From the NCBI GenBank assembly GCA_002305475.1, contig DBRB01000015.1:72987-136986 (forward strand): 64,000 bases of DNA, in the 5' to 3' direction. The number at the start of each line of letters is the position of its first letter. The stretch's first letter is position 1. Below, one piece after another: positions 13,503 through 50,925 of this stretch. The stretch is from a candidate division WWE3 bacterium UBA1379. GTDB taxonomy: Bacteria; Patescibacteriota; WWE3; UBA101185; UBA10185. The position numbers and the translations under genes were made by a program. A model generated the notes under the pieces. It made no database searches. It had not been told where the DNA came from and saw nothing but the letters and a program-made list of their open reading frames with translations.

Positions 13503-14637
13503 AATCTCCCGCCGTATAAATTATATCTGTTCTTCTGCGGAGAAACTCAACCATTTTATTATTATAAGCATCATATTTTGTATTATGAAGAATATATTTT
13601 ATATTTATTCCCGGTGTTGGTGTTTTATCTATAGTATCGGAGTCAGGATTCATGACCACAATTTTGTTATTTTCCCAATAACATGTAACAGCACCCATCC
13701 AGTTGCCGAACCAACAGTATAATCCAGGTTTATCCGTATAGTAGTAAAACTCGGATAAGTTATTTACCACGAACCATTCATGAGAATTTGATGGCATATT
13801 ATTAATAAAGTCAAATATTGTCTTAGTCGGGTGATCCTTTAACTGTGATTCCTTGTCTTTATTTTCAGTGCTAATATTACCGGTTAAATAATTGTTATTT
13901 TCCTTATTAAGTACAATGAATGCTTTAAAAGAGTTTATCAGTACAAGAATTAAAATACTGACAAGGATTATAGATTTATATTTACGGATAAATACATTAG
14001 AAGTAATTTCATTTATAAGGTAAAAAATCAAGGCAAGAGTAATTGGTTGATTAGTCATTTGGTAGCGATAGTTATAGGGGTCTTTGAAAATCAGTATAAC
14101 TGAAACAATATAATATAGGAAAAACGCGATTTCCCATCTTTTACGTTTCCTGATTGTAACAATCCCATACAAGAGGAGAGGAATGGCTAACCAGTTCAGG
14201 TTACCTAAAAGTTTAAATCGGAAAAACTGACCCAAATTACCATTGAAAAACATTTTTCCATCTGTCTCTACATCTCTGTCTGTGCTGCTTAGGTCTGAGT
14301 AATACCCAAGTGATATTAAATTATCTTTAATCAGGATTTTTTGTTCCTCACTAACATTCGGATCGATATAAAGGTATTCCGGGTGCATAGGGTCCGGGTG
14401 GTAGTATTTTTTCAAAAGAGATATTTGCTGTTTAAATGCAGCATTATTTGGTGATTCTTCTGTTAAAGCGGAAACAGCAATATATTCTGGCAAGCTTAGT
14501 TCAGAGACATCTGTATTATTAATTATTGAATACACGTTAAATACAACAAGGTATGCTAAAAAAATGCATCCGATGATTGATATTCCGGTAATTACTTTAA
14601 ACTTTCCTGTATTAATTTCCATTGCAGTTTGAGCCAT
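13480..14637 (-). CDS. Membrane protein of unknown function
   Basis: 385 aa, with an N-terminal TM, a central soluble region and additional C-terminal TM helices. Gene overlaps couple it into an operon. Confidence 0.35.
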   Translation of the reverse strand: MAQTAMEINTGKFKVITGISIIGCIFLAYLVVFNVYSIINNTDVSELSLPEYIAVSALTEESPNNAAFKQQISLLKKYYHPDPMHPEYLYIDPNVSEEQKILIKDNLISLGYYSDLSSTDRDVETDGKMFFNGNLGQFFRFKLLGNLNWLAIPLLLYGIVTIRKRKRWEIAFFLYYIVSVILIFKDPYNYRYQMTNQPITLALIFYLINEITSNVFIRKYKSIILVSILILVLINSFKAFIVLNKENNNYLTGNISTENKDKESQLKDHPTKTIFDFINNMPSNSHEWFVVNNLSEFYYYTDKPGLYCWFGNWMGAVTCYWENNKIVVMNPDSDTIDKTPTPGINIKYILHNTKYDAYNNKMVEFLRRRTDIIYTAGDYVIYQIK

Positions 14638-32043: not shown

Positions 32044-34953
32044 GTGCACCCCGAATTAATAGTTATTGGATTATTATTCATAATATCTTTAGTCCTTCTA
32101 TTAACCAACTTTAAAGCTGGTTTTTATGTGCTTCTAATTTTATCTGTTTTACTACATAAAGAACTTTTCAGCATTTTCAGATGGGATATTCTTCCGGTCA
32201 GACTATTTATGGTAGCATTTACAATCTTTGCAGGTATTAAAGGTCTCCAATGGTTCATTAAAGAGAAACGCATTAAGAGTGTTTTTAATCATGCTGCAAA
32301 TCCGTTTATTCTTTTCCTTTTAGCATTATGGTTGGTTCGTGCAATATCTTTGATCTTTAGTAAGAACATGCAGTCCAGTATTCAGCTTTTGGGTTTTTTT
32401 ACCTCTATGGTGGTTCTAGGTATTTATCTTTTTTACTACTTTCAGAGCAAACCTCAGGAAATAATTAAATTTATTAAATTTTATATCTTTGTAGTTTTTG
32501 GTTTGTGTGTTTTTGCATTTATTCAGCTGATTATTTATGCACAGACAGGTAAAATTTACGGAGCATTGTGGAACGTCCCCGGACATTTATCAAGAGTCGG
32601 ATCACTATTTTGGGATGTGAACCATTTCGGGGGATTATTAGCTGGTCTTCTTCCGGTATTAGGTATATTTATTTTGGTCTCAAAAGGTGTTAAGGAAAGA
32701 TTAGGATACATGTTGCTTATTATTCCGATGTCACTGGTTCTTTTATTAACCAATTCACGTACTTCCTGGATCAGTGCCTTTATTGCATTGATGGTATTTA
32801 TCACCTTAATGATAGTGAGGAGAGTGGGTGTAAAAGGTGTGGTTGCAGTTGTTTTGGCATTGATCCTGATATCTATACCGTTTGTTATTGAGTATCAGGA
32901 TAAATCCAGTCCCTTTAGAGCCAGGGTAAAACAGTATTTCCATTACAGAATAGATTCGTTTGATTCGCACCTGCTACTGTTAAGAGGTGCATTTCAGGTA
33001 TTTGAATCATATCCGTATATTGGTGGCGGTTATGGTAGTTTCTTTGAACATTTTTCCAAGACAAAGGTAGCTGCTGAATTTTTCGGTAGAGATCCTGCGG
33101 CACTAAATGTCCGTGTACCTGCTCATACCATATGGGGGGAATTAGTGGCAGAAACAGGCATTACCGGATTGGCAGTATTCATCCTTTTTATACTTTCCGG
33201 ATTGCTGCCCCTTTTATATCTATCACAAAATCAGAAAGATAAAAAAGAATACTTAATTTCTTCAGCTATGTTAGCCGGTTTGGTAGGATGGCTTACTGCC
33301 GGAATATTTTACTCATACAATTCAGAGTTTTTCTGGCTAGTGTTCTTTATGTATTTCATCTATGGATTGAACATTTTAGGGCGGGATAAGTACGGAAAAA
33401 TTATTTCTCACTACACCCAGCATAATAGTATCGGTTTTTGGTTGATCCTAATTATCTCAGTAGGTTTGGTTTTCTTTAACTTAGGGAAAAACCACCTATT
33501 GCCTTGGGATGAGGCTATATATGCACAGATTGCTAAAAATATGGTGCAATCGGGAGATTTTATTGTTCAGAGATGGTGGCCGGATAGGGTATGGTATGAA
33601 AAACCTCCGCTTGGTATGTGGCTGATAGCAGTTTCATTCAAATTATTTGGAATTTCTGAATTTACAGCTCGATTATCTTCAGCAATATTTGGAATCGGTA
33701 CGGTATTAATTGTGTATTTCTTCGGAAGAAGAATGTTTAATAAAACAGTTGGTTTTATTTCGGCATTGTCTCTATTGACCACATTTAACTTTTTATATTA
33801 TTCCCGGGCATCAATGCTTGATGTAACTTCTACATTCTTTATTACTTTATCTCTGTTTTTATACTGGCTGGCAAAAAATAATAACAGAAATCAGATTATG
33901 TATTGGGTAATCTCCGGTCTTACGGTTGGAATGAGTATTATGGTAAAAGGGGTAGTCGGTTTTATACCATTTGCGGTGATAGGTATGTTTGAAATATATC
34001 TATTCCTGATAAAGAAACAAAAGCTTAACAGCCGACTTTTTTTGGGATATTTCTCATTCTTCATATTCAGTGTATTGGTATTTATGCCATGGCATTTGGA
34101 AATGTATAGGAGATTTGGTGCTGCGTTTATTGATAATTATCTTGGATATCATGTTCTGGATAGGGCAACATCGTCCATAGAAGATAAAGGAAGACCGTTC
34201 TTCTGGTACACGATAGTCATGAAAGTGAGTATGCGAATCTGGTTTGTGGTATTAATTCCTGCTTTACTTTCGATTATGTACGGAATTTATAAGAAATCAG
34301 ATAAAAATACATTCCTTATGATCTGGCTCGTTTTCATTTTTCTCCTATTTTCCAGCGCTACATCAAAATTAAAATGGTACATTATTCCGATTTATCCTGC
34401 TACATCTTTAATGGTTGGGTATTTCCTTGAACGAGCCTTAGATTTTCTATTCAATAAGGTGAAAGTATTAAACCCGGTAATAATTAAAACCATGTTCCTC
34501 TACTCTCTGGTGGTATTCGGCTTGTTTTATTTATTTGTGAACAGGGAGCTAGTTTACGAAACGGATTTGACGGGAGCACAGGCACTACTTTTGGAAGAGA
34601 AGGATCAGATATTCGGAACCGATACGAAAGTGTATGCAGATAGAATTGACCTGCCGTTGATCTTATATTACTCCGACAGTCCGTTTGAAGTCGTCGATTT
34701 TGCACCCTTAAATGAGAAAATATCCGTACTTACTCCTGAAGATAAATTTATCTTTATAACCAAAGAAAGTCGTTATAGAAAACTAAAGGAGAGCTACCCC
34801 AGAATAGAAAAGGTATCCGGTTATAAAGAATGGGTTATGGGTTTCATTTCGTATGGGTATGATTATGACTCTTCAACTAAAGAGGTGAATCCTATCGATC
34901 AACCATTGATTCCACCCGTAGATACCCCAATACAAATCCAAAATAACCCTTGA
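32044..34953 (+). CDS. Fusion membrane protein: N-terminal O-antigen ligase/polymerase-like (Wzy_C) domain plus C-terminal ArnT/PMT-like GT-C domain
   Basis: 969 aa with a GTG start. The N-terminal half has TNSRTSWISAFIAL...GGGYGSFFEHF...VPAHTIWGELVAETGITGL (O-antigen ligase family signature). The C-terminal half has PWDEAIYAQIAKNM (the DE-x-RYA-like acceptor loop of ArnT/PMT) and PLGMWLIAVSFKLFGISEFTARLSSAIFGIGTVLIVYFFGRRMF. Confidence 0.55.
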   Translation: MHPELIVIGLLFIISLVLLLTNFKAGFYVLLILSVLLHKELFSIFRWDILPVRLFMVAFTIFAGIKGLQWFIKEKRIKSVFNHAANPFILFLLALWLVRAISLIFSKNMQSSIQLLGFFTSMVVLGIYLFYYFQSKPQEIIKFIKFYIFVVFGLCVFAFIQLIIYAQTGKIYGALWNVPGHLSRVGSLFWDVNHFGGLLAGLLPVLGIFILVSKGVKERLGYMLLIIPMSLVLLLTNSRTSWISAFIALMVFITLMIVRRVGVKGVVAVVLALILISIPFVIEYQDKSSPFRARVKQYFHYRIDSFDSHLLLLRGAFQVFESYPYIGGGYGSFFEHFSKTKVAAEFFGRDPAALNVRVPAHTIWGELVAETGITGLAVFILFILSGLLPLLYLSQNQKDKKEYLISSAMLAGLVGWLTAGIFYSYNSEFFWLVFFMYFIYGLNILGRDKYGKIISHYTQHNSIGFWLILIISVGLVFFNLGKNHLLPWDEAIYAQIAKNMVQSGDFIVQRWWPDRVWYEKPPLGMWLIAVSFKLFGISEFTARLSSAIFGIGTVLIVYFFGRRMFNKTVGFISALSLLTTFNFLYYSRASMLDVTSTFFITLSLFLYWLAKNNNRNQIMYWVISGLTVGMSIMVKGVVGFIPFAVIGMFEIYLFLIKKQKLNSRLFLGYFSFFIFSVLVFMPWHLEMYRRFGAAFIDNYLGYHVLDRATSSIEDKGRPFFWYTIVMKVSMRIWFVVLIPALLSIMYGIYKKSDKNTFLMIWLVFIFLLFSSATSKLKWYIIPIYPATSLMVGYFLERALDFLFNKVKVLNPVIIKTMFLYSLVVFGLFYLFVNRELVYETDLTGAQALLLEEKDQIFGTDTKVYADRIDLPLILYYSDSPFEVVDFAPLNEKISVLTPEDKFIFITKESRYRKLKESYPRIEKVSGYKEWVMGFISYGYDYDSSTKEVNPIDQPLIPPVDTPIQIQNNP

Positions 34954-34975: not shown

Positions 34976-35185
34976 TTATGATTTTCTTCCAAAACTAAAT
35001 ATTGCTAATAACAGATATATAGCCGATGCACCAACCAGAGAGTATATGAATTTGGTTGGTACGGAACCCTGTCCTAGAATTGATGCAACAAGGTCAAAGT
35101 CAAATAACCCTATTAACCCCCAGTTAATACCTCCTACTATAGTTAGGATTAGTGCTGTTAAATCAAAAGTATTAAGCTTGTTCAT
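34976..35185 (-). CDS. DUF378-family small membrane protein
   Basis: 69 aa with the GGINWGLIGLFDFDLV motif characteristic of DUF378. Confidence 0.55.
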   Translation of the reverse strand: MNKLNTFDLTALILTIVGGINWGLIGLFDFDLVASILGQGSVPTKFIYSLVGASAIYLLLAIFSFGRKS

Positions 35186-35240
35186 ACAAAGAGCATCTAC
35201 TATAAGCTTTAAATGTAAGTTGTAATCAGGTAAAGATTTC

Positions 35241-35266
35241 CAGGGATAAACCCGGGTTTATCCCTG
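35241..35266. promoter_or_regulatory. Perfect 26-bp palindrome CAGGGATAAACCCGGGTTTATCCCTG in the divergent intergenic region
   Basis: Read directly from the sequence. The half-site GGTTTATCCCT recurs immediately before the aspS start codon (35521-35531). Confidence 0.5.
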
Positions 35267-35299
35267 TATCTGTTGTCGTTGTAGGATCTTTATGATAAT

Positions 35300-35471
35300 C
35301 TAAAAATAATAGTGATGACGGAGACTGTGACCCTCCTGAACTGCATGGTAAAAAGGCTTTATGCTGAGTAAGACCTGCCGGGTGAGCCCGTTACAGCTTT
35401 CAATGAGTGAAAAGTACCGGGTGGCACCGTCCAATATTGGACCCTGGCAGAGTTAGCCGGGGCTTGTTTTT
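35300..35471 (+). promoter_or_regulatory. T-box-like leader (putative tRNA-Asp sensing) upstream of aspS
   Basis: GUGAUGA K-turn-like element at the 5' end. Hairpin GGAG-ACUGUGACC-CUCC exposes a GAC codon. T-box-like GGGUGGCACCG sits at 35419-35429. Downstream hairpin CCCUGGC-agaguua-GCCGGGG is followed by CUUGUUUUU. Confidence 0.4.
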
Positions 35472-35531
35472 CAGACCCTACGCTGCGGCTGATTTAATAA
35501 ATAAATTTAGGGTCGATCTAGGTTTATCCCT

Positions 35532-36869
35532 ATGAGGACTATTATTAGAGATACTTTAAATAAAGTTGGAGAAAAAGCCACAATTTATGGTTGGGTTAGG
35601 CTGGTGCGTGACCACGGTAAAGTGACGTTTGTGGATGTGAGAGATTTTTCTGGTGTGATACAGGTGGTGTTTGTCGGTAATGCCGATGCTAAATCCCTGC
35701 GCAGTGAAGATGTAGTAGTGATTGAGGGTACTGTGCAGCAGAGAAAAGCCGGAACGGAGAATACGGAAATCGAAACAGGGTCAATAGAAATTTTCGGTGA
35801 ATCGCTTACAGTATTGGAGAGAGCGGGTGATCTACCTATTGATATGGGTGCTGCGGAATTAAATGTAGAGCTTCCAACTTTACTGGATCATCGTTCTTTA
35901 ACTTTACGTCATCCCAAAGTGCAGGCAATTTTTAAAGTGCAGGAAATTATTGTAGATGCGTTTCGTAATGCTCTAAAAGAAAAAGATTTTACCGAATTTG
36001 TTGCTCCAGCTATTGTTCCTACAGCTACCGAAGGCGGGGCGGAAGTTTTTAAGATTGACTATTTTGACTACAATGCCTTTTTAGGTCAGAGCCCACAGTT
36101 TTATAAGCAGATTATGGTTGGAGCGTTTGAACGGGCTTTTACCGTAGGTAAGGTATATCGGGCTGAACCGTCTGTGACAACCCGGCATCTGACTGAATAT
36201 CTATCTCTTGATGCTGAATTCGGTTTTATTAATGATTTTATGGAAATAATGGATATGGTTGAGTATGTTATGAGAAGGATTTTTAAAGATCTTAGCGAGA
36301 AAGGTGAAAAATACCTTAAACTGTATGGAGCAACAATCCCTCAGTTTTCGGATAAGATTCCTGCAGTTACTATGGACGAAGCTAAGGAAATAATTTTCAA
36401 AAGAACAGGCAGGGATATAAGAAAAAAACCTGACCTTGATCCACAAGGTGAAAAAGATATCTGTCAGTATGCATATGAAGAGTTCGGAAGTGAACTGATT
36501 TTTGTGACTCATTATCCGACAGCAAAAAGACCTTTTTATACATATCCAAATAAGGATAATACGGAGATAACGGACAGCTTTGATTTAATCGGCAGAGGTG
36601 TGGAATGGGTTACTGGCGGTCGAAGAATCAATAATTATGAACATATTGTGGAGAATGCAAAAAAGTGGGGAAATGATCCTGAAGCATTAGATATTTATCT
36701 TCAAGCTTTCAGATACGGCATGCCTCCCGAGGGTGGTTTTGCCTTAGGTGCGGAACGAATCACTATGAATATCTTAGGTCTTCAAAACATCAGAGAAGCA
36801 TCTGCATTCCCACGAGATATGGAAAGAGTTGATGTGATGCTGCGGGATATACAACCTGAGGAAGAATAA
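35532..36869 (+). CDS. aspS: Aspartyl-tRNA synthetase, short archaeal/eukaryal-like class IIb form (likely non-discriminating)
   Basis: 445 aa, lacking the bacterial GAD insertion. N-terminal OB anticodon-binding domain, class II motifs, and the C-terminal GGFALGAERITMNILGLQNIREASAFPRD (motif 3). Confidence 0.9.
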   Translation: MRTIIRDTLNKVGEKATIYGWVRLVRDHGKVTFVDVRDFSGVIQVVFVGNADAKSLRSEDVVVIEGTVQQRKAGTENTEIETGSIEIFGESLTVLERAGDLPIDMGAAELNVELPTLLDHRSLTLRHPKVQAIFKVQEIIVDAFRNALKEKDFTEFVAPAIVPTATEGGAEVFKIDYFDYNAFLGQSPQFYKQIMVGAFERAFTVGKVYRAEPSVTTRHLTEYLSLDAEFGFINDFMEIMDMVEYVMRRIFKDLSEKGEKYLKLYGATIPQFSDKIPAVTMDEAKEIIFKRTGRDIRKKPDLDPQGEKDICQYAYEEFGSELIFVTHYPTAKRPFYTYPNKDNTEITDSFDLIGRGVEWVTGGRRINNYEHIVENAKKWGNDPEALDIYLQAFRYGMPPEGGFALGAERITMNILGLQNIREASAFPRDMERVDVMLRDIQPEEE

Positions 36870-38565: not shown

Positions 38566-38606
38566 AAAAAACCCCCTATAAAATCTAGCTTTATAGGGGT
38601 ATTTTC
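38566..38606 (-). terminator. Intrinsic terminator downstream of the 117-aa ORF (minus strand)
   Basis: Minus-strand read: CCCCTATAAAgctagatTTTATAGGGGG followed by TTTTTTATTT. Confidence 0.6.
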
Positions 38607-50886: not shown

Positions 50887-50925
50887 AAACAGGCAGATAT
50901 TTATTTATATCTGCCTGTTTTTTAT
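50887..50925 (+). terminator. Intrinsic terminator after the GH43 gene
   Basis: AAACAGGCAGATAT-ttattt-ATATCTGCCTGTTT, a perfect 14-bp stem followed by TTTTTTATT. Confidence 0.75.

Follow-up and report, generated by a model that had tools for sequence, protein, structure and literature searches.

A candidate T-box riboswitch with an ultrashort Stem I upstream of an archaeal-type aspS in a Patescibacteriota bacterium

How is the archaeal-type aspS gene of the candidate division WWE3 bacterium UBA1379 (Patescibacteriota) controlled? The gene lies in a 64,000-nucleotide stretch of contig DBRB01000015.1 (positions 72,987 to 136,986; hereafter the window, whose numbering is used throughout). An original prediction had described four elements upstream of it, namely a perfect palindrome, a K-turn-like element with a hairpin displaying the Asp codon GAC, a T-box-like antiterminator core with a second hairpin, and a terminator-like hairpin with a U-run, and had reported that half of the palindrome recurs at the start codon. 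All four elements and the repeat are present in the sequence at the positions described (Table 1). We consider it likely, with a probability of about 0.8, that the region ~35308-35471 is a T-box riboswitch coupling aspS transcription to the charging state of tRNA-Asp. The palindrome probably lies outside the T-box RNA, as an element of its own upstream of the promoter.

Detection and anatomy of the T-box RNA

In a permissive Rfam scan of 35100-35650, the only meaningful match was to the T-box family RF00230. It extends over 35306-35449 on the plus strand and covers model positions 1-219 end to end, with a sub-gathering score of 39.8 bits (E 2e-7). The K-turn, the proximal Stem I pairs, Stem II, Stem IIA, and the antiterminator were all aligned, with ~75 Stem I model positions reduced to 8 nt and 19 Stem III positions reduced to 2. 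We also examined 68 loci encoding AspRS relatives in species-representative genomes, together with contigs of the closest metagenomic homologues, and found the pattern G[GA]TGGNACC upstream of aspS in 13 candidate phyla radiation (CPR) loci. A covariance model, R1, was built with a hand-written structure from six other CPR aspS leaders (L014, L019, L034, L049, L037, and L053), with the window and its relative L069 excluded. When searched against 0.5 Mb, R1 gave a single match in the window, at 35313-35454, full length, with 60.9 bits and an E value of 4.5e-11. The model also matched L069 (47 bits), L011, L012, and L018, and weaker matches were obtained in eight further CPR loci and in two Clostridium controls, L056 and L057.

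Base pairing was then evaluated across the family. In an alignment of 21 leaders, 95.6% of the cells pair, compared with 67% after shuffling and at most 55% when partners were slid by one column, and changes on both sides were found in 20 of 23 pairs. This alignment had been fitted to R1, and RNAalifold on a plain, unfitted MAFFT alignment of eight leaders served as the control. Both Stem II helices, Stem IIA, and the antiterminator helices A1 and A2 with the 7-nt bulge were recovered there, with compensatory changes in 12 of 22 pairs. The closest T-box-bearing relative, L069, whose AspRS is 77% identical to that of the window, carries a homologous T-box and terminator. Every helix is intact in both, and the difference in helix A1 is a G.U to A-U change that preserves pairing. 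From the Rfam and R1 matches, the family covariation, and the conservation in L069, we conclude on comparative grounds that the T-box is real and under selection. The K-turn-like element, the specifier hairpin, the antiterminator core with its second hairpin, and the terminator-like hairpin of the original prediction are parts of a genuine T-box.

Stem I is ultrashort. It is closed by G35312-C35341 and U35313-A35340, and its base holds a K-turn (GA motif, GAUGAC/UGA; GUGAUGA at 35312-35318) that aligns to gaUGA...GA of RF00230 with flanking pairs G-C and U-A. The closing pair of the K-turn covaries across the family (CG, AU, UG, and UA). Above it, a 4-bp specifier hairpin, GGAG (35320-23)/CUCC (35333-36), presents the apical loop ACUGUGACC with GAC at 35329-35331, a specifier whose amino acid matches the aspartate--tRNA(Asn) ligase gene downstream. 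A long Stem I with the AG bulge and distal loop that form the tRNA-elbow platform is not present. Across the family alignment, GAC or AAC occupies the same position of the apical loop. The Asn codon AAC replaces GAC in L049 (2789-2936), L009 (2728-2848), and L046 (388-462), which is sensible since the enzyme also charges tRNA-Asn. Judging from these codons, the tRNA that controls aspS is apparently tRNA-Asn in some lineages and tRNA-Asp in others.

Stem II contains the S-turn-like purine strand GAGUAAGA (35366-73), and compensatory changes were observed in the family at every pair of its helix. An F-box-like CCGUUA is located at 35388-93, and a possible IIB pseudoknot, judged by eye alone, pairs AGC (35385-87) with GCU (35396-98). 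In this candidate pairing, again by eye, the window and L069 have A:U, L053 and L037 have U:A, and L014 and L019 have a mismatch. Stem III is absent; a small candidate, UUUCA/UGAAA at 35398-35412, was rejected as it is not kept in L069, L014, and L019. The antiterminator consists of helices A1 (CCGGG/CCUGG) and A2 (GUCC/GGAC), which flank a 7-nt T-box bulge, UGGCACC, at 35422-28. The T-box sequence at 35419-35429 reads GGGTGGCACCG (alternatively written GGGUGGCACCG), and the stricter pattern RGGTGGNACCRY occurs once in the window compared with 0.08 expected occurrences. The discriminator G73 is conserved in tRNA-Asp, and UGGC in the bulge would fit it; the bulge has UGGU instead of UGGC in L049 and L011. 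Pairing of UGGN with NCCA belongs to the published T-box framework (PMC7583486, PMC7778990).

Table 1. Features of the aspS leader and its flanks in window coordinates
Feature	Position	Strand	Description or evidence
Divergent gene for a DUF378 small membrane protein	34976-35185	-	Pfam PF04070, E 9e-22
Perfect 26-bp palindrome CAGGGATAAACCCGGGTTTATCCCTG	35241-35266	.	13+13 inverted repeat, arms 100% complementary, spacerless
Candidate sigma-70-type promoter of the aspS leader	35273-35301	+	Positional analogy with 15 or more family leaders, including L069
Ultrashort Stem I	35312-35341	+	Rfam and R1 alignments
Stem II	35343-35378	+	Lower helix GCA(U)GG/CCUGC, upper helix GGC/GCU
Stem IIA/F-box region	35379-35398	+	Stem IIA at 35379-35390, CGGG/CCCG; aligned, covarying
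Purine-rich linker CAAUGAGUGAAAAGUA	35399-35416	+	Stem III absent
Antiterminator	35417-35447	+	Rfam and R1 alignments; covariation in both helices
Predicted intrinsic terminator	35442-35471	+	Stem CCCUGGC/GCCGGGG (35442-35462), 7-nt loop AGAGUUA, then CUUGUUUUU
Post-terminator leader	35472-35531	+	AU-rich local hairpin 35501-11/35517-27; second GGTTTATCCCT copy at 35521-31
aspS	35532-36869	+	Archaeal-type non-discriminating aspartate--tRNA(Asn) ligase; NCBIfam and Pfam matches

Expression platform and proposed mode of action

The extent of the transcribed leader was estimated from the position of the promoter. In 15 or more family leaders, a promoter of the form TTGxxx-16/17-(TG)TAxxxT precedes the first modelled T-box position, with its end 10-13 nt away; that of L069 reads TTGTTC-16-TGtTATTAT and lies 13 nt upstream of the T-box. 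The corresponding site in the window has a -35 box TTGTCG (35273-78), a 17-nt spacer, TG (35293-94), and a -10 box TAATCT (35296-301), and ends 11 nt before the first modelled position (35313); its match to the consensus is weak, and it was picked by position. By analogy with the family, aspS transcription would start at ~35307-35310. With the promoter at 35273-35301, the leader probably comprises ~224 nt (~35308-35531) rather than the 346 nt first proposed. The start codon had also been described as having no obvious Shine-Dalgarno (SD) sequence; a weak SD-like AGGU (35520-35523) is present 8 nt before the AUG, within the repeated 11-mer described below.

The terminator-like hairpin and U-run overlap the antiterminator as T-box logic requires. 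The 5' arm of the terminator (35442-48) and the antiterminator 3' arms (35439-47) share 35442-35447, and the computed energies are -13.4 kcal/mol for the terminator and -10.6 kcal/mol for the antiterminator. The greater stability of the terminator, together with the overlap, gives the usual T-box layout, in which transcription terminates by default unless the antiterminator is stabilised by uncharged tRNA. The folding of alternative structures that had been proposed gave a mutually exclusive pair of helices; the canonical fold did not emerge from an unconstrained calculation (see below). The U-run ends 60 nt before the AUG, and the SD-like AGGU has no complementarity to any T-box strand. An SD-sequestering platform, by which the actinobacterial ileS elements are recognised, was not found; the alternative helix is the terminator with its U-run. 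In most family members examined, a terminator arm likewise reuses the A1 3' strand; then comes a U-run, still well upstream of the ATG (typically 30-70 nt, and at the closest 15-16 nt in L015 and L008). For L012, L053, L004, L007, and L061, the automated terminator folds were weak or failed, and the terminators there were judged by eye. From this layout we infer that the T-box would act by transcription attenuation.

In the mechanism that we propose, transcription would start just downstream of the promoter, and the nascent RNA would fold the K-turn and the 4-bp hairpin, with the apical-loop GAC displayed to the GUC anticodon. The S-turn strand of Stem II and the Stem IIA/F-box region may dock on the codon-anticodon helix and compensate for the missing elbow-binding distal Stem I. 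With uncharged tRNA, the 3' GCCA would pair with UGGC of the bulge and stabilise the antiterminator, and polymerase would read into aspS. With charged tRNA, the more stable terminator would form and transcription would stop ahead of the start codon.

In the unconstrained fold, a helix within 35451-35485 joins AGUUAGCCG, a segment that takes in the start of the 3' arm of the terminator, to CGGCUGAUU, located downstream of the U-run. An analogous GGGG...CCCC option follows the terminator in L069. The AGUUAGCCG/CGGCUGAUU pairing could be a second alternative helix or a folding artefact.

We compared this leader with known T-box systems. It shares with canonical transcriptional T-boxes (RF00230; Bacillus subtilis tyrS and glyQS) the K-turn at the Stem I base, a cognate specifier, the Stem II S-turn, Stem IIA with a possible IIB, and the F-box, as well as the 7-nt UGGN bulge, an antiterminator opposed to an intrinsic terminator, and a synthetase gene downstream. 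Unlike them, it lacks ~75 nt of Stem I, including the elbow-binding distal platform, and it lacks Stem III; its specifier is in the apical loop rather than in an internal loop. In the short Stem I, the apical-loop specifier, and the missing elbow motif, it resembles the ultrashort, translational ileS T-boxes of Actinobacteria (Sherwood et al. 2015), for which structures from Mycobacterium tuberculosis and Nocardia farcinica are available (reviewed in PMC7583486). As in that class, the K-turn, the Stem II S-turn, and Stem IIA, with a possible IIB, are kept, and these would be expected to carry tRNA binding. Apical-loop specifiers are a property of short Stem I's, for which the K-turn and the domain formed by Stem II are indispensable (PMC7583486; PMC11297988 and PMC7778990 draw this contrast as well). 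By contrast, the actinobacterial elements use an SD sequestrator, whereas the window has a terminator with a U-run well ahead of the start codon and no Stem III, and the gene is aspS in a patescibacterial host rather than ileS in Actinobacteria.

A third comparison is with Clostridium. T-box control of the non-discriminating AspRS/GatCAB pathway in Clostridium acetobutylicum was reportedly described by Saad et al. in 2012 and 2013 (cited in PMC4206432). In our data, the two Clostridium loci L056 and L057 encode archaeal-type AspRS homologues that are 43-44% identical to the window protein and have Rfam-significant T-boxes upstream. The window resembles them in that an archaeal-type AspRS gene is regulated, and some CPR leaders likewise use the Asn codon AAC. 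The Clostridium leaders are long, tandem, and Rfam-significant (105-109 bits), and an Asn specifier is a defining property of the clostridial class; the window leader is minimal, single, and sub-gathering and has GAC. T-box control of an archaeal-type AspRS, which had been suggested and which our results support, is therefore not new in itself, and its noteworthiness had been overstated. The hint at a Firmicutes-like repertoire had been overstated as well; the host belongs to the CPR/Patescibacteria and is not a Firmicute.

What stands out, and had not been pointed out in the original prediction, is the combination of an ultrashort Stem I, no Stem III, and a transcription terminator, an architecture that appears new. 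In published work, transcriptional T-boxes have a long Stem I and capture the tRNA elbow rapidly, and short Stem I's are a trait of the slower, translational switches of Actinobacteria (PMC7583486, PMC11297988, PMC7778990). The short-Stem-I model of the TBDB database was applied only to Actinobacteria and to sequences detected by Rfam (PMC7778990). At Rfam gathering thresholds, RF00230 detected none of the 18 CPR aspS leaders but both of the Clostridium leaders run alongside them; gathering-score Rfam systematically under-annotates the T-boxes of Patescibacteria. No report of T-boxes in CPR/Patescibacteria was found in the library searched, an absence that is not proof of novelty. We propose, tentatively and at somewhat less than even odds, that the leader in the window represents a class of minimal terminating T-boxes, undescribed and spread across the Patescibacteria, that lack the elbow platform and Stem III, in some cases also Stem II, and sense tRNA-Asp or tRNA-Asn for a non-discriminating AspRS. 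If so, co-transcriptional capture of tRNA would occur without a long Stem I, contrary to the current view, and T-box regulation in CPR would have been invisible to Rfam-based annotation so far. An ultrashort Stem I on a terminator, if it marks a conserved family, would blur the line between transcriptional and translational T-boxes. Such a family would also offer natural minimal T-boxes of ~140 nt for structural and kinetic work and for engineering, and would rank among the few concrete mechanisms of cis-regulation identified in Patescibacteria, a group with largely unexplored gene regulation (PMC11665869).

Several results weigh against a functional, terminating T-box. At Rfam gathering thresholds, nothing was reported for RF00230 in the whole window, the match found in the permissive scan falling far below the gathering score of 93; this shortfall is due to the missing ~75 nt of Stem I and the missing Stem III. 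An RF00230 search, proposed as the first check, thus returned a match but not at the gathering level. The unconstrained minimum free energy fold of the whole leader did not reproduce the canonical T-box fold, and its stability was ordinary (z -1.2). The base 3' of the specifier is C in the window (GACC) and a purine in every other family member (xGACA), and a purine is expected there as a conserved feature (PMC7583486). Transcriptional T-boxes generally need the elbow contact of a long Stem I (PMC7583486). Stem III, said to aid the sensing of aminoacylation, was found in only four family leaders (L037, L053, L011, and L012) and not in the window. The window contains no recognisable tRNA gene; among 60 related loci, the only tRNA gene was one for tRNA-Glu, and none for tRNA-Asp or tRNA-Asn was present. 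Finally, no T-box was present in L001, L072, L076, and L078, in which the AspRS is 70-78% identical and the intergenic region is 9-70 nt. Since several relatives this close lack the leader, the T-box is dispensable in the clade.

Some of these points would suit a decaying relic, or a T-box that acts on translation rather than by termination. In favour are the loss of the leader in several close relatives, the pyrimidine after the specifier, the ultrashort Stem I T-boxes described previously, all of which are translational (PMC7583486, PMC11297988), and the local AU-rich hairpin that can cover AGG before the AUG. We regard both as improbable. Against them stand the helices intact in the window and L069, the pairing-preserving change in A1, the overlap of the terminator arm with the antiterminator, the U-run that follows, the distance of 60 nt to an SD region not complementary to T-box strands, and the recurrence of a similar terminator design across the family.

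The palindrome and the repeated 11-mer

The palindrome at 35241-35266 was confirmed as perfect. It ends 7 bp upstream of the putative aspS -35 box, its RNA hairpin would have ~-16 kcal/mol, and only one other locus in the window has perfect arms of 11 nt or more. The word GGTTTATCCCT from its 3' half has exact copies in the 64-kb window only at 35242 (-), 35255 (+), and 35521 (+), the last of which directly abuts the aspS ATG. The recurrence had been correctly described; 5.6% of the 350-nt windows of this sequence hold an exact direct 11-nt repeat of some kind. Because such repeats are only modestly beyond chance and this one is not conserved, the recurrence is suggestive at most. No further full copy of the palindrome was found in the 64 kb with up to 3 mismatches. 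Half-sites with 1 mismatch are located at 13727 and 21927, inside open reading frames, and at 33483, within the PMT open reading frame span; their positions suggest that they are not regulatory. The palindrome was not found before the nearest DUF378 homologues (L199 and L201). In L069, both the palindrome and the 11-mer at the start codon are missing, and the start region is AAGGAGTTTATATG with an ordinary AAGGAG SD; conservation upstream of aspS therefore holds for the T-box and not for these two elements. A MAFFT similarity of the palindrome region to L069 was rejected, that part of L069 encoding the C-terminus of PMT and being homologous to window 34890-34945. Separately, a stretch within the repeated word, AGGTTTAT, is similar to the SD and spacer found in relatives, e.g., AGGAGGTTTATATG in L014.

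Three readings of the palindrome were ranked, with a terminator or insulator hairpin above a protein operator and an RNA switch last. The first is possible, although we hold it with clear reserve. It takes the palindrome as a terminator-like hairpin that stops plus-strand read-through from the glycosyltransferase/PMT operon and insulates the T-box promoter, the arm copy at the start codon being coincidental, as the frequency of 11-nt direct repeats would allow. The palindrome was called terminator-like, forming 11 pairs with UAUCUGUUGU as its tail, and it is the only such site from the PMT stop (34953) to aspS. The remaining perfect-arm hairpins of the window, at 38573-38599 and 50889-50918, form canonical terminators in the same style, with long perfect or near-perfect arms and a GC clamp on an AT-rich stem. 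A metagenome scan for the palindrome stem, AGGGATAAAC-N6-GTTTATCCCT, returned at least 120 loci, in which the stem is part of unrelated A-run/hairpin/T-run terminators on AT-rich marine, gut, and sediment contigs. Among the matches listed, none had the CCCGGG centre and none came from CPR relatives, and the scan shows only that the palindrome stem is a common terminator design and nothing specific on the aspS locus. On the other side, the U-tract of the palindrome is poor, the transcript would run antisense across the entire DUF378 gene, and the element is not conserved.

Two further observations concern such hairpins. The terminators at 38573-38599 and 50889-50918 are formed by CCCCTATAAA...TTTATAGGGG, which is bidirectional, and by ACAGGCAGATAT...ATATCTGCCTGT followed by TTTTTT, and show the hairpin style of the genome. 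In the metagenomic loci (L079-L198, e.g., L079:196-221, L097, L144, and L176), one conserved copy of the AGGGATAAAC/GTTTATCCCT stem lies between tRNA-gene-like sequences and is sometimes duplicated 260 nt apart.

Alternatively, the palindrome may be the operator of a dimeric DNA-binding protein serving the divergent DUF378 and aspS promoters, with the half-site at 35521-35531 as a secondary operator or roadblock. The perfect dyad and the exact recurrence of an 11-bp half-site are consistent with this, and the centre of the palindrome (35253.5) is ~55 bp from the putative aspS start and ~61 bp from the putative DUF378 start, which are typical activator positions. We nevertheless consider an operator unlikely, though more probable than the RNA switch below. 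No more copies exist in 64 kb at up to 3 mismatches and the 1-mismatch half-sites fall in open reading frames; no regulator gene was recognised among the genes neighbouring aspS and the palindrome; the element is found neither upstream of DUF378 homologues nor in L069; and spacerless 13-bp arms are unusual for an operator.

The original prediction had raised a possible translational switch in addition to the T-box: the palindrome would be part of the transcript, and its 5' arm AGGGAUAAACC could form pairs either locally or with the region of translation initiation. An 11-bp duplex of ~-18 kcal/mol is possible there and its target holds the weak SD-like AGGU and abuts the AUG, but this reading is very improbable: it needs a transcription start upstream of 35241, where no plus-strand promoter-like site was found in the intergenic region, the promoter placed by family analogy lies downstream of the palindrome, the local hairpin with its perfect 11-13 bp stem would form first, no trigger to open it is apparent, and the pairing is not kept in L069.

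Relatives and gene neighbourhood

The window protein exceeds the cut-offs of NCBIfam NF003483 (490 bits; cut-off 353) and TIGR00458 (383 bits; cut-off 368), and its named top relatives come from Woesebacteria, Microgenomates, Daviesbacteria, Parcubacteria, and the 'Patescibacteria group'. The G+C content of the window is ~36%. The gene order PMT, aspS, and Polysacc_synt (on the minus strand) is common to the window and L069, and the operon upstream of aspS is the glycosyltransferase/PMT operon. L069 has PMT followed by aspS without the DUF378 gene; the interval from the PMT gene to the T-box is ~350 bases longer in the window than in L069, the additional bases holding the DUF378 gene, the palindrome, and the aspS promoter. 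In L069 (2795-2904), the called PMT/Wzy_C gene runs through the aspS promoter and half of the T-box, and its homology to the window protein ends at ~2821. Two explanations fit: the 3' end of the coding sequence contains the promoter, or the final 27 codons are an artefact of read-through.

More distant Patescibacteria carry the T-box leader, as judged from the R1 matches. Since several AspRS relatives at 70-78% identity are leaderless, the T-box has been gained or lost repeatedly within a narrow clade. In several of the leaderless relatives (L001, L072-L074, L076, and L078), aspS comes immediately after a gene for a prepilin peptidase within a type IV pilus cluster.

Even smaller leaders, without Stem II, were observed in L004 (2826-2944), L007 (2815-2926), L008 (2869-2977), L015 (2875-2967), L018 (2860-2945), and L061 (2865-2961). 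They keep the K-turn, the 4-bp specifier hairpin, and the antiterminator/terminator, and most of them, L018 excepted, also keep Stem IIA. A variant core, GGAUGGCAC, is found in L004, L007, L008, and L061. These leaders are noteworthy because published work calls Stem II essential where Stem I is short.

Furthermore, many CPR homologues of the window AspRS (P0012-P0017, P0021, P0023, P0030, P0041, P0063, P0068, P0072, P0074, and others) have ~600-611 amino acids, with an insertion, a PF04073 (YbaK/aminoacyl-tRNA editing) domain, that separates the OB fold for anticodon binding from the class II core. For a non-discriminating AspRS, the presence of such an editing-type domain looks unusual.

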